NCBI GenBank assembly: GCA_003162595.1
Contig: PMNJ01000345.1
Span: 1 to 44,414, forward strand
Reading direction: 5' to 3'
DNA: 44,414 nt
Source of the DNA: Bacteroidales bacterium
GTDB taxonomy: Bacteria > Bacteroidota > Bacteroidia > Bacteroidales > VadinHA17
Each line of letters opens with the position of its first letter. The stretch's first letter is position 1. The position numbers were made by a program, and so were the translations under genes. This document shows positions 490 through 33,633 of the stretch, piece by piece. Below the pieces are notes generated by a model. It made no database searches. It was not told the DNA's origin and saw only the letters and a list, made by a program, of their open reading frames with translations.

Positions 490-1491
490 TTATTTATTGA
501 ACTTGTTGTACCCTTTTTTTCTTCTACTCTCATCTACAACCTGTTCACTTATCCAGTTATACGTTTTTTTCATACCTTTCCTGAGAGGAATAGAAGGTTC
601 CCAACCGAGATATTTTTTAATAAGGGTGTTTTCCGAATTACGTCCTCTCACACCTTTGGGAGCTTTCAGATCATATATTCTGTTAAGTTTATAACCTGCT
701 ATATCTTCAACTATATCAACAAGCTGGTTAATTGATACCATTTCGCTGCTTCCAAGATTGAGTGGTTCCTCAATATTGCTGTACATAATATCCTGTATGC
801 CCTTAATGCAATCATCTATGTACATAAAGCTCCTGGTTTGAAGGCCATCGCCCCAGATCACTATCTCCTTTTTCCCGGTAATACCGGCTTCAATTACTTT
901 ACGGCTGATAGCTGCAGGTGCTTTTTCACGGCCACCGTCAAAAGTCCCGCATGGACCATAAACATTATGGAACCTGGCAACTCTTGTAGTAAGACCAAAA
1001 TCTTCCCTGAAATGACGGCACATACGCTCGCTGAATAATTTTTCCCATCCATAACCATCCTCTGCCAATGCCGGGTAAGCATCAGATTCTATCAGGCCCG
1101 GATTATGCGGATCGGTCTGCTTTTCACCATTATAAACACAGGCAGACGAGGCATAGAAAAACCTGTCTATACCGCAATCCTTTGAAGCAAGAAGAAGGTG
1201 TGTATTTATCAGAACGCTGATCATACATGCAGCCTTGTTATTTTCAATAAATCCCATCCCTCCCATATCTGCAGCCAGGTTAAAAACTTCATTGTACCCA
1301 TTTACAGCTTTGTAACAGTTTTCTCTCAGACGAAGATCCAGAACGAGGTTATCTGCATCACCAGAAACTTGATACCATTCGTTAAGAGGTTTTAAATCTA
1401 CTGCCCGGACACTGTTACCCTTTTTAATCAGTTCTTTTACAAGGTGTCCACCAATAAAACCTCCTGCACCTGCTACAACAATCTTTTTCAT
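490..1491 (-). CDS. gme: GDP-mannose 3,5-epimerase homologue (extended SDR, NAD-dependent epimerase)
   Basis: 333-aa ORF with an N-terminal Rossmann motif, VVAGAGGFIGGHL. It carries a run of blocks I recall from plant GME: FNLAADMGGMGFI, RFFYASSACVY, RFHNVYGPCGTFDGGREKAPAA, WGDGLQTRSF, GVRGRNSENTLIKKYLGWEP. Confidence 0.75.
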   Translation of the reverse strand: MKKIVVAGAGGFIGGHLVKELIKKGNSVRAVDLKPLNEWYQVSGDADNLVLDLRLRENCYKAVNGYNEVFNLAADMGGMGFIENNKAACMISVLINTHLLLASKDCGIDRFFYASSACVYNGEKQTDPHNPGLIESDAYPALAEDGYGWEKLFSERMCRHFREDFGLTTRVARFHNVYGPCGTFDGGREKAPAAISRKVIEAGITGKKEIVIWGDGLQTRSFMYIDDCIKGIQDIMYSNIEEPLNLGSSEMVSINQLVDIVEDIAGYKLNRIYDLKAPKGVRGRNSENTLIKKYLGWEPSIPLRKGMKKTYNWISEQVVDESRRKKGYNKFNK

Positions 1492-1690
1492 AATTTTTAA
1501 ATTTTAATACTTACTTACACGGTAACTTTCGCGATTACTTTAAAATATAAAAGTAGTTGTTTTTTCCACTCCGGCAAATTCTTTTAAAACATTTTTGACT
1601 GAATTTGACTTTTCTGAGAAATTCGATGTTTTCCTTCTATTTAAGTTTTACCCGAATTCAAAAAATCTTCCAATATTTTTCTTCTTTTCT
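1491..1690. repeat. Intergenic repeat family, copy A (longest, composite copy)
   Basis: 1491-1550 matches 32101-32160 at 57/60 ungapped positions. The core AACTTTCGCGATTACTTTAA (1524-1543) matches 15834-15853 at 18/20. 1639-1680 matches 7238-7280 with 39 identities in a 44-column alignment containing two 1-nt indels. CAAATTCTTTTAA (1575-1587) recurs at 32184-32196. Confidence 0.8.
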
Positions 1691-1867
1691 AAGTTTATGT
1701 GACTTCTATTTAACATCATTAGCGTCCATTAAAAACTAATGATAAATTATATTATATTTAGTTTGGGCTCCCCTTTTGGTAACATTACAATAGACAATTG
1801 AAATTGAAACAATCTCACACATATAAATTAACTACTTTTGAAAAGGAATTATCAAATCCATTAACTT

Positions 1868-3643
1868 ATGTTAGAAGAAAATCTTATGATACCATCTATG
1901 GATATTAAAAATGGGGACAATTTTTTGAATTCACAAACAGATTCCGAAGGTCAAAGGGACCATCGAATGGGTGGAACAAGTCGACTGACACTCTCAGAAT
2001 TCGCTAAGCTTAAAGAGCATCCTGACCTTTCCGTTCTTATTGTGGGCGGTGGCATTAATGGAATCGGCCTCCTGCGAGAGCTAGCATTACAGGGAATAGA
2101 CACTTTACTGGTTGACAAGTCCGATTTCTGCTCTGAAACCAGTGCAGCCATGACCCGTGTGATTCATGGGGGTCTCCGGTATCTTGAAAACGCTGAATTG
2201 CGTCTTGTACGTGAGTCCCTGCGTGAGCGTAACCTGCTATTGCAGAACGCTCCACACTACGTCAAGCCATTGGCAACGACTATTCCAATTTTCAGTTTGA
2301 CTTCTGGCATTATTCCTACTATCCGTAATCTTCTGGGATGGAACGCACGGCCGGGCAACAGGGGAGCATTGCTAATAAAAGCCGGCCTTACGCTGTACGA
2401 TTTGCTTGCAGGAAAGAAGTCTCCTCTTCCCAGGCACAGGTTCCGCTTTCGTCGCACAATTTTTGCACTACGGCCGGCTCTAAACCCCGGAGTGATCTGT
2501 ACCGCAACTTACTACGACGCAAGAATCACTTATCCTGAGAGGTTGTGCCTCGAATTGATCCAAGACGCAGAAGCGTCATTTCCCGAGGCACGAGCACTGA
2601 ATTATGTTAGCCTCCAGAGCGCCATAGGGAAAACTGTGGTACTGCGCAATGAGCTATCCGGCGAAACAACTGAAGTTAGGCCCAGAATTGTCATTAACGC
2701 AACGGGCGCATGGATCGATTTCACCAACCATAGCCTGGGGCAGAAGTCCTGCTTTATAGGCGGAACTAAAGGTTCCCACATTGTACTCAACCACCCTGGA
2801 CTTGTGGAAGCAACAGGCGACGAAATGATCTACTTCGTAAACCTGGACGGACGTATCTGCATCTTCTACGCAGTCGGCAGTAAAATTATCGCCGGCGCAA
2901 CCGATATCCCTACTGAAGACCCTGATGCAGTCTGTGACGAGGCTGAGGTAGATTACATTCTTGAGGCTCTGCAGCAGGTATTCCCTTCAATCCAAGTTGA
3001 TAGGTCACATGTAGTTTATCGGTTCTGTGGCGTTCGGCCATTGCCTCAAAGTAATACCTTAACACCAGGCCAGGTCAGCCGTGACCATAGCTTTCCGGTA
3101 CTGATCCCAGGAAACGGAATTGATTTTCCAATCTACTCCCTTGTCGGCGGAAAATGGACAACCTTCCGTGCACTGGCTGAGCAAGTAGCAGACGAGATTT
3201 TACGAGTTCTTGGACACCCTCGAATCTGCGATTCCGCGAATATTCCCATCGGTGGAGGCAAAAATTACCCCCCTAAGATGAATGAGCGGGAGGGAATACC
3301 CCGCCATCGGTTTGTAGAGCTCATAGAACGCTATGGCTCAAGGGCAGAAAAAGTCGCTACCTATCTACAGGCGGGTCCTGATGCTCTGTTGACCTATCAT
3401 AGCGGTTATTCCCGGCGGGAGATTGAATTCATAGCACGATACGAGAGAGTAGCTCACCTTGACGACCTGATCCTGAGACGAACATTAATGGGTATACTGG
3501 GTGAAGTGAGCCTGGCTTTGCTGGAAGAACTGGCAGCAATTATTTCACCGGTGCTTGAATGGTCTCCGCAGGAATCGAAAGCCGAGGTTGTACGAACCGT
3601 GGAGCTTCTTCAGAGAGTTCACGGTGTGATGCTGGCCAGGTGA
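1868..3643 (+). CDS. FAD-dependent glycerol-3-phosphate dehydrogenase family protein (GlpD/EryB-like polyol-phosphate dehydrogenase)
   Basis: Collinear with remembered E. coli GlpD blocks: LIVGGGINGIGLL, TSAAMTRVIHGGLRYLENAELRLVRESLRERNLL, INATGAWIDF, GSHIVL, CGVRPL, GGKWTTFRALAE. The start is uncertain. The first ~25 codons are AT-rich, and the ATG at 1967 (MGGTSRL...) is an alternative. This is the only supported plus-strand gene. Confidence 0.85.
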   Translation: MLEENLMIPSMDIKNGDNFLNSQTDSEGQRDHRMGGTSRLTLSEFAKLKEHPDLSVLIVGGGINGIGLLRELALQGIDTLLVDKSDFCSETSAAMTRVIHGGLRYLENAELRLVRESLRERNLLLQNAPHYVKPLATTIPIFSLTSGIIPTIRNLLGWNARPGNRGALLIKAGLTLYDLLAGKKSPLPRHRFRFRRTIFALRPALNPGVICTATYYDARITYPERLCLELIQDAEASFPEARALNYVSLQSAIGKTVVLRNELSGETTEVRPRIVINATGAWIDFTNHSLGQKSCFIGGTKGSHIVLNHPGLVEATGDEMIYFVNLDGRICIFYAVGSKIIAGATDIPTEDPDAVCDEAEVDYILEALQQVFPSIQVDRSHVVYRFCGVRPLPQSNTLTPGQVSRDHSFPVLIPGNGIDFPIYSLVGGKWTTFRALAEQVADEILRVLGHPRICDSANIPIGGGKNYPPKMNEREGIPRHRFVELIERYGSRAEKVATYLQAGPDALLTYHSGYSRREIEFIARYERVAHLDDLILRRTLMGILGEVSLALLEELAAIISPVLEWSPQESKAEVVRTVELLQRVHGVMLAR

Positions 3644-6352: not shown

Positions 6353-6667
6353 CTAATTTTCAAGTTTCGAATTTTTAATATCTTCAAGATATTGTTTAAT
6401 TTTTTGATTTTCCTCTTTCCTGATGATGAGAAGGGCATCGAAGGTATCCACAACAATATACTCGTTCAACCCTTGCAACAGAGCAATTTTTGGGTGGTAT
6501 GCTTATTAAATTCCCTTTACTGGCTTAAGTAAAGACTTTACCACATACTATTCATTTTCATTATCATCGATGGTTGTTTGCACGTACAGCGAACCCCATG
6601 CACCAAGATCGGACCATCCCATTTCTGCAGTTGTTCCAATAAAAATCACCACTTTTAAAAAGTGCAT
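6353..6667 (-). pseudogene. Decayed 3' fragment of a mannose-1-phosphate guanylyltransferase gene (manC-like)
   Basis: A single minus-strand frame reads MHFLKVVIFIGTTAEMGWSDLGAWGSLYVQTTIDDNENE*YVVKSLLKPVKGI**AYHPKIALLQGLNEYIVVDTFDALLIIRKEENQKIKQYLEDIKNSKLEN*. The GWSDLGxWxSLY and IVVDTxDALLI blocks are hallmarks of the C-terminal third of ManC-type enzymes. There are three in-frame stops, and the N-terminal two thirds are missing. Confidence 0.6.
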
Positions 6668-7089: not shown

Positions 7090-7237
7090 AATTTTCTGAA
7101 TTTTATAGTATTTGATTTTAGTTGAATAAACTTTAACTGTTATTTAAGCTTGGGATTGCGTGTAAGTTCATATATTTCCTTGCGACCTCTCATCCTCTCA
7201 ATACTTCACTTTTATCTTCACAGCTCCCGGCACCTTC

Positions 7238-7280
7238 ATTTAAGTTTTACCTGGATTCAAAAAATCTCCAAATATTTTTT
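7238..7280. repeat. Intergenic repeat family, copy B (distal motif)
   Basis: ATTTAAGTTTTACCTGGATTCAAAAAATCTCCAAATATTTTTT versus 1639-1680: 39 identities in 44 columns. It lies between the GH29 stop (7309) and the mutarotase start (7089). Confidence 0.7.
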
Positions 7281-7308
7281 TGGCTTTTTCTGTTTAAACA
7301 GCATTTTA

Positions 7309-8715
7309 TTAAATGCGAAATTGTTTGTAAGGACCTTTGTATTTTATAACAATTATATTATCAATTGAATCAATTGGTTGCTCGGGTAGATAGATCATCA
7401 AACCCTGAGAATGAACATCTACTTTTAATGGTTTCTTTTCTTTATCCGCAAGTAAATAAGCATTATTAAATTCATTGACAAAATCATTCAGGTAGAGCAT
7501 ATTATCCCCCGGCCACCGGAACAGGTGCAGATACAAAGTATTGGGTTTTGCTGTAATCCCGCTGATACTGTTATTCCATCTTACCGATGGTCCACCGCTT
7601 GTTGTGCCATATATAGCTTCACCATTTACAGAGAGCCAATTTCCTACTTTTTTCAAAATTGCCTGTGCTTTTTCGGGCATTACTCCCTCGCTTGTAGGGC
7701 CGACATTTAAAAGATAATTGCCACCTTTTGATGCTATGTCTACCAGATTAGAGATTACCTCATCTGCACTTTTAAAAGTAGTATCGGTTTTATTATATCC
7801 CCAGCTTCCGTTCAAAGTCATGCAAACTTCAAATGCAGTGCTTTGAGAACCGCCAGGTATTTCCTGTTCCGGAGTCCCATAATCTGCTCCGATGCCTCCC
7901 ATCCGGTTGTTAATAAGGCATTTGGGTTGCCATTTATGGATGGAATCAACCAAAGCTAAAGCCATTTCACGGTTCTGCAATTCATCCGGATCAAATGCCG
8001 GACCAGACCAATCCCACCAGATAATACCAATATCACCATAGTTTGTAAGAAGTTCCTTTACCTGACCTTCGAGATATGCGAAATACTTTTTATAGTCGGC
8101 ATCGCGATTGGGGAACCCATGAAATCCTTCTGGATACTGTTTGGTATGGTAAGTATATTTTACCGGAAACTGAGGATGGTGCCAATCCTTTACTGAATAA
8201 TAAAAGCATAATTTCAATCCCTGTTTTCTGCATTCTTCAGCAAGCGCTTTCATTGGATCCTTCCCATATGGTGTGGCATCTACAATATTATAATTCGTCA
8301 GTTTTGAATCGAACATGCAAAAGCCTTCATGGTGTTTGGCGGTTATGACTATATATTTCATACCTGCTTGTTTTGCCATTGACACCCATTCTTTAGCAAT
8401 AAACCTGACCGGATTAAATTGTTTTGCAAGTTTTTCATATTCCTCACCGGGAATATTGGCACTATATTGTATCCATTCCCCGTAATTTTTTCTCCCATTC
8501 CATTCGCCGGCCGGTACGGAATAAAGTCCCCAATGGATAAACAGACCAAATTTTGCTTCCTGGAACCATTCTAATTTCTTTGACGAATCAATGGCTGAAT
8601 CATTCTTGGCTGATTCGTTTTTTTTAAGGTTACAGGATAATAAACTTACTGAAAGCCAAACACTGATTATAACCAGTTTTAAATATGTTTTATAATTCAT
8701 ATGTTCTATTGTCAT
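7309..8715 (-). CDS. GH29 alpha-L-fucosidase, probable lipoprotein
   Basis: LEWFQEAKFGLFIHWGLYSVPAGEW, AKHHEGFCMFDS and IIWWDW blocks are typical of GH29. The signal peptide ends in LLSC (lipobox-like). An alternative start is the ATG at 8700. Confidence 0.9.
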   Translation of the reverse strand: MTIEHMNYKTYLKLVIISVWLSVSLLSCNLKKNESAKNDSAIDSSKKLEWFQEAKFGLFIHWGLYSVPAGEWNGRKNYGEWIQYSANIPGEEYEKLAKQFNPVRFIAKEWVSMAKQAGMKYIVITAKHHEGFCMFDSKLTNYNIVDATPYGKDPMKALAEECRKQGLKLCFYYSVKDWHHPQFPVKYTYHTKQYPEGFHGFPNRDADYKKYFAYLEGQVKELLTNYGDIGIIWWDWSGPAFDPDELQNREMALALVDSIHKWQPKCLINNRMGGIGADYGTPEQEIPGGSQSTAFEVCMTLNGSWGYNKTDTTFKSADEVISNLVDIASKGGNYLLNVGPTSEGVMPEKAQAILKKVGNWLSVNGEAIYGTTSGGPSVRWNNSISGITAKPNTLYLHLFRWPGDNMLYLNDFVNEFNNAYLLADKEKKPLKVDVHSQGLMIYLPEQPIDSIDNIIVIKYKGPYKQFRI

Positions 8716-14114: not shown

Positions 14115-15743
14115 TCATTTCCCCGATATTTTTAATACATAAGCATATTGACAAGGTTGCGAAGCAGGTAACTGAACTGTAAGACCCTTCTCATTTTGAA
14201 CCCATTTTAATAAATCTTTTGAACCAAGCATTTGAATATCTCTTATTTCTCCAAACCAGAGCGCTTTTCCTTTATGCAATGATTTTATTGTGACCTCTTT
14301 CCCGGGCCAGGCCATCAGAATGGCATAAATACTTTTGCCCTTGGTTGTAAACCTGATGTCTTCAGCAGTGTATTCTTTTGGCCGGTTGCTTTGATTTCCT
14401 CTTACTTCCTGTACCTTAGTGGGTCCTTCTCCCATAATTTCCCATGGCCGTGTCCCGTGAATGGCCTCGCTGTTTACGGCCATCCATTGCGCCATTTCAT
14501 CAAGGAACTTATAGTAAGCATCAACGATGGTACCATCGGCACGAAGGTTAATATTTAGCAACAGATTCCCATTTTTACTTACTATATCCACCAGTTGTAA
14601 TACTACATCCTTTGTAAGGATGGGGCCTCTTCCCGAATATATGAGATACATGGGATTGATATAGAAAAATCCATCAAGGCCAGTATCAGTTTGCCAGGGA
14701 TATTTTCTTGGTATATCGCTCTGTGCGTTTTCAAGATCCAAAACAAGTGCTTTCTGCTGTTCTTCCGAACGCGATCCTTTAACATTAATTACAATCTCGT
14801 TTTTGCCGTTGTTCCATTTTTGACTTTGATTATAATAATAAGAGGCCATATCCAACCTGCGGAAAGGAAGACCGCCATCGTAATAAATCAGGTCAGGGTG
14901 ATAGTTGTCTATCAGGTCGACCATGCGGTTTATAAGAATCTGTTTAAAAAGTGAATCGGGTTGATCACCGTCATCACCAGGGAAAGGGCCTGAATAGGCT
15001 CCCTGCTTAGATCCTTTATGAGGCTGCCCGTATAAATCCCGCGGATCATACCCTTCCCACCATTTGCCTTTACCATCGGCCTTTGTCATCCATCCATCAT
15101 ATGGAACTCCTTTCAATGGTCCTGTTGTATCGGCCATGCGGGAAATCTCCCAGTATCTCCAGGTGCCTTCCCCATGATTTGAGACACCGAATTTCATGTT
15201 ATTATGTTTTGCAGCATTCTGCCATTCCTTCACTATATCCCTTTTAGGGCCCATATTCACTACATTCCATGGCTGATATTTGGAGTTCCACATATCGAAG
15301 TTATCGTGATGCATAGCCATGGACACAAAATATCGTGCGCCTGCCTTGTAGTAGAGTTTCATTAAAGCTTCGGGATCCCATTTAGCGCACGTGAATAAAG
15401 GAATTAAATCCTTAAACCCAAATTCAGAAGGGTGACCATATTTAATCAGGTGATAAGAGTAAGCGGGTATCAAATCAGGGAACGCCCAATTATTATCCTG
15501 TATATACAGTCGTCTGGGAAACCAGTCCCCGTACTCTGCCACACTGTTCGGACCCCAATGGGCCCAGATTCCAAACTTGGCATCGCGGAACCAATCGGGG
15601 CAATCGTATTGTTGGGAAAGCGATTCCCATGTCGGTTCAAAAGGTCCGGTTTTCGGCAGAAGCGGCTGTGCGGAACTGACAATGGACATTACCACAAAAA
15701 GCATACTGCATAGGCTAATTCGTGTAACAACATTCATTTTCAT
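14115..15743 (-). CDS. GH29 alpha-L-fucosidase (second, divergent paralogue)
   Basis: DWFRDAKFGIWAHWGPNSVAEYGDW, MAMHHDNFDMWNS and LIYYDGG blocks. SPI-type signal peptide (IVSSAQP). Confidence 0.9.
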   Translation of the reverse strand: MKMNVVTRISLCSMLFVVMSIVSSAQPLLPKTGPFEPTWESLSQQYDCPDWFRDAKFGIWAHWGPNSVAEYGDWFPRRLYIQDNNWAFPDLIPAYSYHLIKYGHPSEFGFKDLIPLFTCAKWDPEALMKLYYKAGARYFVSMAMHHDNFDMWNSKYQPWNVVNMGPKRDIVKEWQNAAKHNNMKFGVSNHGEGTWRYWEISRMADTTGPLKGVPYDGWMTKADGKGKWWEGYDPRDLYGQPHKGSKQGAYSGPFPGDDGDQPDSLFKQILINRMVDLIDNYHPDLIYYDGGLPFRRLDMASYYYNQSQKWNNGKNEIVINVKGSRSEEQQKALVLDLENAQSDIPRKYPWQTDTGLDGFFYINPMYLIYSGRGPILTKDVVLQLVDIVSKNGNLLLNINLRADGTIVDAYYKFLDEMAQWMAVNSEAIHGTRPWEIMGEGPTKVQEVRGNQSNRPKEYTAEDIRFTTKGKSIYAILMAWPGKEVTIKSLHKGKALWFGEIRDIQMLGSKDLLKWVQNEKGLTVQLPASQPCQYAYVLKISGK

Positions 15744-15833: not shown

Positions 15834-15916
15834 AGCTTTCGCGGTTACTTTAATAATAAAATTAATTAGTTTCCCTCTTTTAAATTTCTTTTCAATATTA
15901 ATTTAATTCAAAAAGG
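15834..15916. repeat. Intergenic repeat family, copy C
   Basis: AGCTTTCGCGGTTACTTTAA (15834-15853) is 18/20 identical to 1524-1543. It is followed by TCTTTTAAA and AATTCAAAAAGG segments in the same order as copy A. It lies between the beta-helix gene stop (15959) and the GH29 start (15743). Confidence 0.6.
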
Positions 15917-31134: not shown

Positions 31135-31722
31135 CTATACAAAAAGATGCAAAAAGAGTATTGCAATGAGAGAATAATTGCCCAGTTTTTTACGGATAGT
31201 TTTTAGTGCCCGAGACATATGGTTTTCAATAGTATTTACAGAAATATCTAAGAGTACTGCAATTTCGCTATATTTCAGGGCTTCAACCTTATGCAGCAGA
31301 TAAACCTCTTTTTGGCGCTGAGGTAATGCGTATACAATTTCATTTATTTTATTTGTCAACTCAGTATATTCAAGTTCCATATTGACAGGCTTCTCGTAGA
31401 TTATTTGCAGAGACTTCAAATATTCAACAAACTTAGATTCCATCGCTTTTTTACGGAGAATGGAAATAGCTGAATTATAAGTTATAGCGAATATATAGGA
31501 TTTAATTGATGAGTCCTTCTCAACTTTATGTCGATTTTCCCACAAATTAAGAAAAACATCCTGAACAAGGTTCTCTGTCTCTTCATGTGATTTAAGAAGA
31601 GAATAACCAAACTTATAGAGCTTTTTACTATACTTTTTATATATAAGATCAAAAGCAAACATATTGTCAGCCTTGATTTCCCGCATTAATTCTTCATCAC
31701 TATATAAAATAAGTTCTTTCAT
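31135..31722 (-). CDS. ECF-type RNA polymerase sigma-70 factor (Bacteroides PUL-associated type)
   Basis: 195 aa. Region 2: FDLIYKKYSKKLYKFGYSLLKSHEETENLVQDVFLNLW. Region 4 HTH: RQKEVYLLHKVEALKYSEIAVLLDISVNTIENHMSRALKTIRKKL. It lies directly upstream of the FecR-like gene. Confidence 0.9.
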   Translation of the reverse strand: MKELILYSDEELMREIKADNMFAFDLIYKKYSKKLYKFGYSLLKSHEETENLVQDVFLNLWENRHKVEKDSSIKSYIFAITYNSAISILRKKAMESKFVEYLKSLQIIYEKPVNMELEYTELTNKINEIVYALPQRQKEVYLLHKVEALKYSEIAVLLDISVNTIENHMSRALKTIRKKLGNYSLIAILFLHLFV

Positions 31723-31785: not shown

Positions 31786-32100
31786 CAACTCTTTATTCAA
31801 ATCCAAATATAATATACTAAGCGCTTTAAGATTAAATTTTGATAAATTACATGCTAACAGTGGCTCCTTTTTTCTTGCATTATCTTGCATCTATCTGAAT
31901 TTTGCCATTCGGATATTTTTTTGCAATCATTATAATCCCAAGCTAATAAATTTTTGTTACATATGGAAAATATAAATGATTCAAAAAAGTGATGAAATCT
32001 CTTCTTATTTAATATACCTTCGAATAAAAACCATTCTTTTAGGTAAGGGCTTAATTTCCTTCAGCATATGTCGTATATTCGTGCCTTTATCAGTAAAAAA

Positions 32101-32220
32101 TAATTTTTAAATTTTAATATTTACTTACACGGTAACTTTCGCGATTACTTTAAAGCATAAAAGTAATATTATTCTTACTATAACAAATTCTTTTAAGAAA
32201 TAATTTGATTTTTCAAAGAA
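32101..32220. repeat. Intergenic repeat family, copy D (orphan copy of the region that precedes the gme-like gene)
   Basis: 32101-32160 versus 1491-1550: 57/60 identical. Collinear weaker similarity continues through CAAATTCTTTTAA (32184-32196), and TAATTTGATTTTTCAAAGAA (32201-32220) versus GAATTTGACTTTTCTGAGAA (1601-1620) is 16/20 identical. It abuts the isomerase stop codon at 32221. Confidence 0.8.
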
Positions 32221-33633
32221 CTAGCAAACGCGTACAAACGGAATACCAAGTATGCAAGACAGTTTATTCAGCTTATTGGCGATGTGGCCCACGCCGATGG
32301 CACAATGATGAGCCGGTCCTTGTTTTGACCAACAGTTCACGAAATCTTTTGCACCGATTGAAAATCTGTATCGGCTGTTCGTATTCCCAATTTCGAGCAC
32401 AGGTCCAGGTACCGATTCACCTTCGGCAACAAGTAGAAATAAACCCTCTTTATTCTCTACCACAGAAAGCAGTGTGACCGGTCCATGCTTAACAGTCATC
32501 TGAATGGACAATCCTTTGCCTGGTTTTCCATGAAAGACAGGAAGCGGAACCAGTTTTACCTGTCCTTCGGCAATGGCAAAGTGAGCCGGGCCATCATGTC
32601 CCAGAATAATTACATCATCTTTAAAATCCATCAGGTAAAATTCGGAAAATGATCCACCGGCTCCAAATTCGGCTAAGATTTTCATTGCTTGCGCATTTTT
32701 TACTTCACATTCGCCAGCTACGGGAATGTTTTTTCCTGTCAGTAGTGTATTTCCGGCAATGACTGATGTAGCGATGTTTTCATAATCGTTACCCGACACG
32801 CCTTCGTAGTAATAAGCCATCGAGCCAAGATTATGGGCCTCTATAATTTTGTCAAGCGAAACGGATGTCTGAGCTGCGCGAACAATTTCATCCTTCCCGC
32901 ATTCCGGAACTACCTCAAATACGGTTTGAAACTCATTGATCTTGGCATCTATTTCTGCACTTGAAACTTCGTCCCGGTATTTCTTAAGTTCGCACATTTC
33001 AAGTAGTTCAATATGGGTCCCGAATATGACAGATTGTTTGGTGAGGTCGGTATAAACATCCAACATTCCACAGTAATAATGCCCTAAAACTCCGAGACGG
33101 TTTTTGCGCATGGCAACAGCTACCCTGGCAGCTTCAGTCCATGCCTGAATTTCATGCCAGGCATCATTATCTTGCAGATAGCCAGTTACTAAATCGTACT
33201 GGATTTCCGAGCGGTTGAATACACTGGCTATTTCGGGAACCGAGCAGGCCTGGCAATGCTCGAGCCATACTCCGGTCATTTTCCCACGATCACCCAACTT
33301 GTTGAAGCTTTTATAGTCGAGCTGGGCAACCGGTTGCATGTTGAGAATAATCACAGGTACTTTCACTTTCGCTGCCACAGCCAAAACAGTGGATGAAAGG
33401 GCATATGTGGATACATATAGAAAGAGTATTTCCACATCGCTGCTCTTTAATAATAATGCAGCATCCTGTGCTTTCATGGGATTGTCTACCATGCCAGCAT
33501 CTATTACTTCAACGCCATAACCGGCAATCCTGTTTTTAATCTGTTCCTGATATGCTTTCAGTTTGTCATATAGTCCTTTGAATTGTCCCCAGTATGTATC
33601 CAGTCCAATTCCAAATAAACCCACTTTTGTCAT
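32221..33633 (-). CDS. L-arabinose/L-fucose isomerase superfamily protein (AraA-like aldose-ketose isomerase, specificity unknown)
   Basis: The N-terminus, MTKVGLFGIGLDTYWGQF..., has an AraA-like fold pattern. Also present are VAGECEVKNAQAMKIL (compare AraA GEGDWKTAALLRI), ILGHDGPAH (compare GSHMLE) and a C-terminal GPAHHCAI (compare GGAHHTV). I trimmed the start to the ATG at 33633. Confidence 0.75.
   Translation of the reverse strand: MTKVGLFGIGLDTYWGQFKGLYDKLKAYQEQIKNRIAGYGVEVIDAGMVDNPMKAQDAALLLKSSDVEILFLYVSTYALSSTVLAVAAKVKVPVIILNMQPVAQLDYKSFNKLGDRGKMTGVWLEHCQACSVPEIASVFNRSEIQYDLVTGYLQDNDAWHEIQAWTEAARVAVAMRKNRLGVLGHYYCGMLDVYTDLTKQSVIFGTHIELLEMCELKKYRDEVSSAEIDAKINEFQTVFEVVPECGKDEIVRAAQTSVSLDKIIEAHNLGSMAYYYEGVSGNDYENIATSVIAGNTLLTGKNIPVAGECEVKNAQAMKILAEFGAGGSFSEFYLMDFKDDVIILGHDGPAHFAIAEGQVKLVPLPVFHGKPGKGLSIQMTVKHGPVTLLSVVENKEGLFLLVAEGESVPGPVLEIGNTNSRYRFSIGAKDFVNCWSKQGPAHHCAIGVGHIANKLNKLSCILGIPFVRVC

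Follow-up and report, generated by a model that had tools for sequence, protein, structure and literature searches.

The window analysed here, 44,414 nucleotides of DNA, makes up nearly all of one contig (C333) in a metagenome-assembled genome (3.73 Mb, 372 contigs, 38% G+C) of an uncultured Bacteroidales genus. It carries a fucoside and rhamnoside utilisation locus, identified with Pfam and NCBIfam, in which nearly all the genes lie on the minus strand (Table 1). The subject of this analysis is a set of intergenic repeats within the locus, copies A to D. Copy A precedes an epimerase gene of the GDP-mannose-3,5-epimerase type, D precedes an extracytoplasmic function (ECF) sigma factor gene, C precedes a GH29 gene and B follows another. 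We put the probability at about 0.7 that A and D, with C in a weakened form, are one cis-regulatory module, the predicted promoter and repressor operator of operons for harvesting fucose or L-galactose. This reading is carried by the conservation of the sequence, its bias in position and orientation, the content of the regulon and its genomic linkage to a LacI-family gene, all of which can be read directly from the genomes.

Table 1. Coordinates of the genes and repeat elements of the window, with the regulator gene on contig C67; promoter, operator and leader are predicted elements.
Feature	Position	Strand	Remarks
Cytidylyltransferase-like gene after epimerase		-	truncated by contig end
NAD-dependent epimerase, GDP-mannose-3,5-epimerase type (gme)	490-1491	-	
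Copy A, AT-rich untranslated leader	1492-1510	-	19 nt; ends at epimerase ATG (1491-1489)
Copy A, operator	1511-1540	-	30 nt, AAGTAATCGCGA / AAGTTACCGTGT / AAGTAA; strict motif at 1513-1533
Copy A, TATTTTA	between -7 box and operator	-	
Copy A, -7 box	1548-1555	-	TACTTTTA; 7/8 positions of sigma-A consensus TAnnTTTG
Copy A, -33 element	1575-1578	-	TTTG, core of the 'middle piece' AAAAGAATTTG; 19 nt upstream of -7 box
Copy A, distal piece	1639-1697	-	150-205 nt upstream of epimerase ATG; outside promoter-operator module
GlpD-like gene	1868-3643	+	convergent with FGGY kinase
manC fragment (mannose-1-phosphate guanylyltransferase)	6359-6631	-	C-terminal third; tblastn 48% over residues 267-358
3' remnant of nucleotidyltransferase/kinase fusion-gene paralogue and downstream spacer	7141-7237	-	last 11 codons and stop, VPGAVKIKVKY*, at 7233-7198
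Copy B, distal piece	7238-7296	-	starts 12 nt after stop of first GH29 gene
Third block of locus, remainder		-	GH29 (7309-8715), RhaM mutarotase, permease, FGGY kinase
Third block of locus		-	several hydrolases, GH29 (14115-15743), DUF5107-TPR protein, 595-aa protein without assignment
Copy C	15835-15864	-	-7-like box TAATTTTA (15857-15864) and single site AAGTAACCGCGAAAGC (15835-15850)
Second block of locus		-	ECF sigma (31135-31722), FecR-type anti-sigma, SusC with STN domain, SusD
Copy D, operator	32121-32150	-	identical to A; strict motif at 32123-32143
Copy D, -7 box	32158-32165	-	TACTTTTA
Copy D, -33 element	32184-32187	-	TTTG; 18 nt upstream of -7 box
First block of locus		-	GH95, GH35/42-like gene, GH31, GH78, isomerase-like gene
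LacI-family regulator gene	C67:3711-4730		

A preliminary description of the window had reported one three-part element, with a proximal core, a middle piece and a distal piece, at four gene junctions. Its central observation, that the spacers at A and D are nearly identical, holds exactly: 1491-1550 and 32101-32160 match without gaps at 57 of 60 positions, and the mismatches are solely at 1510, 1545 and 1546. A repeat finder extends the pair to 66 nt (1490-1555 and 32100-32165, 63/66, 95%) and BLAST to about 97 nt at 86%. The core 18-mer, CTTTCGCGRTTACTTTAA, occurs three times in the window (1526, 15836 and 32136), always on the minus strand, where shuffled sequences give an expectation of 0.00. 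The genome-wide search for the core that had been proposed returned these three copies on their one strand, with no further match at up to one mismatch in 3.73 Mb.

The three-part element at four junctions did not stand. Copy B has the distal piece and no core, and copy C contains the first operator site only, the matches claimed for its other pieces being at chance level. Taken alone, the short middle piece TTCTTTTAA (2 seen, 1.5 expected) and the short distal piece ATTCAAAAA (5 seen, 2.3 expected) are at chance level, so the proviso that similarities outside the A/D pair might be no better than chance was partly borne out. The longer distal match pairs 1639-1697 with 7238-7296 and covers 59 nt with 81% identity, or 42 nt with 90%. 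Copy A had been listed among the copies at operon junctions, but the genes around it are not co-directional: it lies in a divergent spacer, with the epimerase gene on the minus strand to one side and the GlpD-like gene on the plus strand to the other. A fourth good copy had been overlooked. It is found on contig C355 (3273-3293), where 18 nt separate it from a GH95 gene, with a GH27-like gene next.

The anatomy of copies A and D is that of a predicted Bacteroidota housekeeping promoter with an operator directly behind it. The housekeeping sigma-A promoter of this phylum has TTTG at -33 and TAnnTTTG at -7 (PMC7366714), and both copies have a -7 box with a TTTG about 19 nt upstream. What had been called the middle piece is probably the -33 region, because its TTTG and the box together fit this promoter. 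Distant species have a perfect -7 box, TATTTTTG, at the corresponding place. A generic sigma-70 promoter and terminator scan of the window gave results at chance level and is uninformative for Bacteroidota. The operator consists of two CG-centred 16-bp sites, AAGTAATCGCGAAAGT and AAGTTACCGTGTAAGT, 12 bp apart, and this register, and not the GTAA-N9-TTAC and TCGCGA symmetries noted at first, is the better reading of how the block is organised. The leader behind the operator differs among species, yet is identical at 18 of 19 positions between A and D. Copy D stands just past the stop of the isomerase-like gene (32221), and its spacer, TTATAGTAAGAATAATAT, is similar to the epimerase promoters of two relatives (G020 and G010).

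Copy C, the weaker third copy (15835-15853), stands some 90-105 nt before the second GH29 gene (ATG 15743) and lacks the second operator site. It scores lower than the other two (nhmmer E = 0.022 genome-wide; position weight matrix 15.7, against 24 for A and D) and is conserved in genome G148 only. We give it about even odds of being a weak operator. In its G148 orthologue (L139, G148:C137) an extra 12-nt unit, GAGCAACCGGGA, is inserted exactly in the repeat register, which suggests that 12-nt units may be gained and lost by slippage.

Evidence for function comes from the rest of the genus, for which we compared 212 species-level genomes from peat, fen, lake and soil metagenomes. In about 40 species the 30-nt block before the epimerase gene is nearly invariant, and the flanks drift. 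Within one genome (G187) the copies before the epimerase gene and before an ECF sigma gene share 27 of 30 operator positions and little of the flanks. A strict 21-nt motif, CGNGWAAGTWNNCGNGTAAGT, was derived from the operator block, with the reversed motif as control, and all matches were fetched. It gave 66 matches in 53 genomes; the control gave 0. Each of the 65 distinct sites is intergenic and oriented towards the gene behind it. That gene is GDP-mannose-3,5-epimerase-like at 40 sites, a GH27-like alpha-galactosidase at 15, GH95 at 3, ECF sigma at 2, a LacI-family regulator at 2, GH31 at 1 and without assignment at 2. The distance to the ATG is 14-25 nt at most sites; smaller clusters occur near 47-53 and 73-77 nt, and a handful of sites are more remote (up to 400 nt).

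The predicted promoter recurs with the operator. A box TAnnTTT(A/G) lies within 20 nt upstream of the operator at 62 of the 65 sites, against 6% at random genome positions, and TT(T)G lies 16-22 nt upstream of the box at 25 of these 62, against 13% in the random-position control. From the end of the box to the first CG there are either 2 or 14 nt at 46 of the 62 boxed sites, a difference of one 12-nt unit. Sites of a second class, that on C355 included, read ATTTACACGTGAAAGTACACGTGTAAGT and contain a perfect palindrome, TACACGTGTA. Upstream of the epimerase gene the two classes, of which the window holds class 1, substitute for each other among species. Of the functions offered in the preliminary description, a promoter or operator shared by a regulon is supported by these comparisons for the proximal and middle pieces, which are found as predicted promoter and operator, oriented with regulon genes, in 53 genomes; the distal piece lies outside the module and looks like a relic of duplication. 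The alternatives of an RNA processing or stability element and of a small selfish repeat both fared badly, as described below.

The gene that lies behind most sites also points to a regulator. In relatives the element is followed by the epimerase gene and a 378-aa cytidylyltransferase-like fusion, and then, in variable order, by a GH29 gene, a FucP-type permease, RhaM, ManC and a LacI-family regulator. In the present genome the operon starting at copy A resumes on contig C67 (1-6298, locus L214), where FucP, RhaM, ManC, LacI and GH29 come after the 3' part of the fusion gene. The regulator has the Pfam domains LacI (helix-turn-helix) and Peripla_BP (sugar-binding) and falls below the cut-off of every named NCBIfam equivalog, the best being PurR (202 bits against a cut-off of 501). 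A LacI-family gene lies in or adjoining the epimerase operon in this genome and in every relative examined. In some species it is the first gene of the operon, and in G164 and G065 the motif is directly upstream of it. Across the 212 genomes the motif and a LacI orthologue occur together in 48, the motif alone in 5, the LacI orthologue alone in 13 and neither in 146 (Fisher p = 1e-29).

On the identity of the regulator, a comparison with another phylum tells the most. Three loci of Ignavibacteriota have an orthologous LacI-epimerase-fusion operon, at 55-58% identity and with the same recognition helix, VSRVT(V/I)SKALR. There a canonical CG-centred palindrome, ACTTACACGAGTAAGT, directly follows a TTGACT-N17-GATACT promoter, and one of the loci has an additional CGAGTAAGT 12 nt further on. 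Within the block of our genus, conservation is highest in the right half-site, CG(A/T)GTAAGT, which this palindrome shares. The Prolixibacteraceae serve as a negative control: their LacI is non-orthologous, divergently transcribed, 35% identical and has the helix VSISTVSRALK, and a different palindrome, CGCAAAGCTTTGCG, lies before the epimerase gene. We infer that the LacI-family protein is the repressor, with the block as its double operator, located on the start site or directly behind it, because of the operon linkage, the Ignavibacteriota palindrome with its shared half-site, the class-2 palindromes and the Prolixibacteraceae control.

Several further observations concern these genes. In six of the Prolixibacteraceae loci (L074, L075, L079, L080, L083 and L084) the interval between the epimerase gene and LacI holds CGCAAAGCTTTGCG, or CAAACCTTTGCG units in tandem, some 100-130 nt upstream of the former, and these palindromes look like an independent LacI operator for the same operon. 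In-frame stop codons interrupt the LacI orthologue in five genomes of our genus (G185:C4, G018:C2, G029:C14, G026:C25 and G188:C2), and in G185 the epimerase open reading frame (ORF) behind the operator is also truncated, to 132 aa. Some lineages seem to be losing the regulon, with the operator still recognisable. In the present genome a single good operator-like site, ATTTAAACGTGAAAGT, lies on the minus strand at C195:13196, about 2 kb from a LacI paralogue (C195:15396-15725) whose N-terminus is 40-46% identical and which is cut by the contig end; the two may represent a sister regulon. The fusion protein has a cytidylyltransferase-like N-terminus, and its C-terminal half looks GHMP-kinase-like by eye, with no Pfam call. 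The epimerase is 68-79% identical across many phyla. The gene set of the operon suggests a GDP-sugar route for the salvage or catabolism of L-galactose or L-fucose.

Some observations weigh against a promoter with a LacI operator. The co-occurrence of motif and LacI is confounded, as both travel with the epimerase operon, and one of the five motif-bearing genomes in which no LacI orthologue was detected is 99% complete. The class-1 sites of the window are poor palindromes, with 3 of 8 positions symmetric per half-site pair, and the combined weight matrix resembles a 12-bp direct repeat, AAGTWAYCGYGW, as much as a LacI palindrome. To our knowledge, a LacI dimer does not read direct repeats. At copy D, metatranscriptome contigs read through from the isomerase gene into the copy, so D is itself transcribed and need not be the sole promoter, and it lies 398 nt from the ECF sigma start.

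In one alternative the block is the operator of another protein, encoded elsewhere, that reads direct repeats in 12-bp phase, such as an AraC-type, OmpR-type or other response regulator, with LacI a bystander or partial binder. The weight matrix is dominated by AAGT...CGNG...AAGT, one species (L049) has a perfect tandem AAGTTATCGTGT x2, and the extra 12-nt unit in copy C of G148 and the five genomes with motif and no detected LacI orthologue would fit as well. Motifs of this kind are typical of the hybrid two-component system (HTCS) and SusR regulators of Bacteroides (PMC3878776). However, no other regulator gene is consistently linked to the loci examined, and both the perfect TACACGTGTA in class-2 sites and the CG-centred palindrome with the same half-site before orthologous LacI operons in Ignavibacteriota speak against it. 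Recognition helix and operator also change together across lineages. We consider a different, direct-repeat-reading protein unlikely, although it is the best of the alternatives.

Contigs from peat metatranscriptomes of independent studies cover 1274-1533 and 31860-32354, with the 5' end of the epimerase gene, the spacer from D to sigma and the ECF sigma gene among the parts represented, and the locus is thus expressed in situ. These data are assembled contigs without strand and cannot map a 5' end. Two 259-nt contigs end inside the operator, at 1532 and 1533; this is only suggestive. The A/D repeat also breaks assemblies there, and no transcription start can be claimed from these data.

Since it lies behind the -7 box and ahead of the ATG, the block is predicted to be part of the transcript, and the two contigs that extend into it, to 1532 and 1533, would agree with a role in the RNA. 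It could then act as a 5' leader: a riboswitch, an attenuator, or a platform on which an RNA-binding protein or small RNA controls translation or stability. An RNA-binding protein could read repeated short motifs. Structure gives little encouragement to this idea or to the processing element of the preliminary description. A scan of the whole window found no Rfam match at the gathering score, the minimum free energy of the leader is -3 kcal/mol and no better than that of shuffled sequences (z = +0.76), and RNAalifold on 30 sequences found only a 4-bp helix (-1.8 kcal/mol) with 0 compensatory changes. The class-2 block overlaps the -7 box and is hence partly untranscribed, and the homologous site in Ignavibacteriota abuts the -10 box. 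An RNA element is therefore very improbable. Two candidate hairpins, GTAAT..GTTAC and CGCG..CGTG, were rejected: a few one-sided changes fit them and as many break them, there are no compensatory pairs and their energy does not improve on that of shuffles.

The position of copy D raises another possibility, that the block is a promoter for the ECF sigma factor encoded downstream, autoregulated and also driving the epimerase and GH29 genes, with the start 6-8 nt downstream of CGTGTAAGT. The association of D with a sigma gene is no accident of this assembly and is recurrent, because two other genomes show it too. G187 has the same element 147-149 nt upstream of its orthologous ECF sigma gene (72% identity), and in G036 a related element lies 127 nt upstream of the ECF sigma gene of a different sigma/anti-sigma/SusC/SusD locus. 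ECF sigma factors are usually autoregulated. Little has been established about the ECF promoters in Bacteroides loci (PMC3878776, PMC7366714). Yet only 2 of the 65 sites precede an ECF sigma gene, and in most genomes the motif stands before a gene for the epimerase, a GH27-like enzyme or GH95, away from any ECF gene. Conservation runs continuously over 30 nt, where an ECF promoter would have two short boxes separated by some 16-17 nt of free spacer. Ahead of the block there is a predicted housekeeping -33/-7 promoter, and the homologous Ignavibacteriota site lies behind a sigma-70-type -35/-10 promoter. As box spacings and gene association are both wrong, we rejected this reading, which has a very slight chance of being right.

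No more probable is a similarity without function, in which a recent segmental rearrangement would have left A and D at its two ends, as direct repeats around 30.6 kb, and B and C would be debris of a non-autonomous or relic repeat: A and D are indeed alike even in the species-variable leader, their spacers resemble different epimerase-promoter lineages, as after recombination, and the distal piece and B do appear to be debris, but the operator is kept at orthologous positions in dozens of species and before the G187 ECF sigma gene with diverged flanks, in 3-4 copies per genome that are all co-oriented with genes. That copy number and orientation likewise contradict the selfish repeat, of the REP or MITE type, suggested in the preliminary description, with its expected random scatter over genes and strands.

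The distal piece has a history of its own. It occurs in two copies only in the genome. No distal piece was found upstream of the epimerase gene in relatives, and elsewhere in the genus the only partial homologue is in the 3' flank of a GH29 orthologue in G151; judging by this homologous flank, the first half of the piece is original 3' flanking sequence of GH29. Neither strand of it contains a terminator or significant structure. Beside copy B, the segment 7141-7237 is 90% identical to the end of the G148 fusion gene (L045 1293-1389) and resembles the end of the intact gene on C67. The manC fragment has 68% nucleotide identity to the intact manC on C67, and between the two remnants is an intact RhaM paralogue with 76% nucleotide identity to the RhaM of C67. 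Because the fusion-gene tail, the RhaM paralogue and the manC fragment sit together, B marks what is left of a second, decayed epimerase operon that has lost its promoter, its epimerase gene and the greater part of its fusion gene by deletion. We read the distal piece as a relic of rearrangement rather than a working part. If the duplication dates back as far as the RhaM paralogues, its identity of 81-90% is more than neutral DNA would be expected to keep, which leaves room for residual function.

Copies A and D also seem to have exchanged sequence. The spacer of A and the 60 nt upstream resemble the second epimerase locus of G148 (copy II), and the coding region behind A is like copy I. The identity of A and D beyond the operator, in the leader and -7 region, suggests that two copies of the module have recently been involved in a duplication or have recombined, because the pattern is mosaic, with a D spacer like that of G020 and G010 and an A spacer like that of G148. 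No remnants of an epimerase gene were found between copy D and the ECF sigma gene. Elsewhere in the window, the ORFs of the FGGY kinase and the GlpD-like gene overlap tail to tail by 25 nt (3619-3643), which leaves no room for terminators.

The module of promoter and LacI operator would work as follows. A housekeeping-sigma promoter, with TTTG at -33, an interval of 18-19 nt and the -7 box, would be followed directly by the 30-nt operator and then by a short AT-rich leader. The LacI-family repressor from the epimerase operon would bind the operator and, sitting on or just downstream of the transcription start, block RNA polymerase, until an effector released it, a sugar or sugar nucleotide that probably derives from L-fucose or L-galactose. 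Three units would be co-regulated in this genome: the epimerase and salvage operon, including the repressor's own gene; the ECF sigma/anti-sigma/SusC/SusD genes behind D; and the GH95 and GH27-like operon on C355. The second GH29 gene, behind copy C, would be a possible fourth.

A wider picture can be drawn tentatively, and we think it rather doubtful as a whole. In it the regulon would span several phyla and serve an undescribed nucleotide-sugar route for using L-galactose or L-fucose, with the cytidylyltransferase-like/GHMP-kinase-like fusion activating the sugar to a GDP-sugar, the epimerase homologue leading to GDP-mannose and ManC to central metabolism. In this genus the cytoplasmic LacI repressor would stand hierarchically above the trans-envelope ECF sigma/anti-sigma switch and read an unusual double, half-degenerate operator in a 12-bp register.

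What the analysis provides is a concrete regulatory map for an uncultured Bacteroidales genus of peat and wetland: which glycoside hydrolases, which SusC/SusD locus and which cytoplasmic pathway are predicted to switch together, with the likely regulator named. The motif is a search key for annotating the regulon in at least 50 metagenome-assembled genomes. Through it, an epimerase-centred GDP-sugar operon is tied to enzymes of the GH95, GH29 and GH27-like types, and the module gives an example of a monosaccharide-type repressor placed before a locus under ECF sigma/anti-sigma control.

In kind, the system appears to be an ordinary local LacI repressor with its operator, a new example of that class. 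It is like the local LacI/GalR repressors with autoregulated catabolic operons (PurR, RbsR, GalR/GalS, CcpA-cre) in having a full-length regulator, with HTH_LacI and sugar domains, inside the regulated operon, and in its central-CG operator, which is predicted to overlap the promoter or start region and is common to a few sugar-utilisation operons. The class-2 and Ignavibacteriota sites are canonical palindromes. It also resembles the Bacteroides LacI-family regulons KdgR, UxaR, UxuR and UxmR, which were inferred by comparative genomics (PMC3878776). It differs in its double operator of two sites 12 bp apart, with left half-sites in the window so degenerate that the whole reads as a 12-bp direct repeat, and in its predicted regulon, which combines the epimerase-centred GDP-sugar operon with GH95, GH27-like, GH29 and an ECF sigma/anti-sigma locus.

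The predicted promoter is of the Bacteroidota sigma-A (sigma-ABfr) type, TTTG-N19-TACTTTTA in A and TTTG-N18-TACTTTTA in D, with the perfect box of distant species as its clearest form and an AT-rich leader without a Shine-Dalgarno sequence; it departs from that type in the last base of the -7 box, which is A and not G at 48 of the 62 boxed sites. With the HTCS and SusR operators of Bacteroides polysaccharide utilisation loci (PMC3878776) it shares the look of a direct repeat and a place before glycan-utilisation operons. Those motifs pair two sites across long spacers that are not conserved (about 21 bp, or 67-77 bp between centres) and are activator sites upstream of promoters (PMC3878776). 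Here, in contrast, the units abut and lie at or after the predicted start, and the locus has no HTCS or SusR gene.

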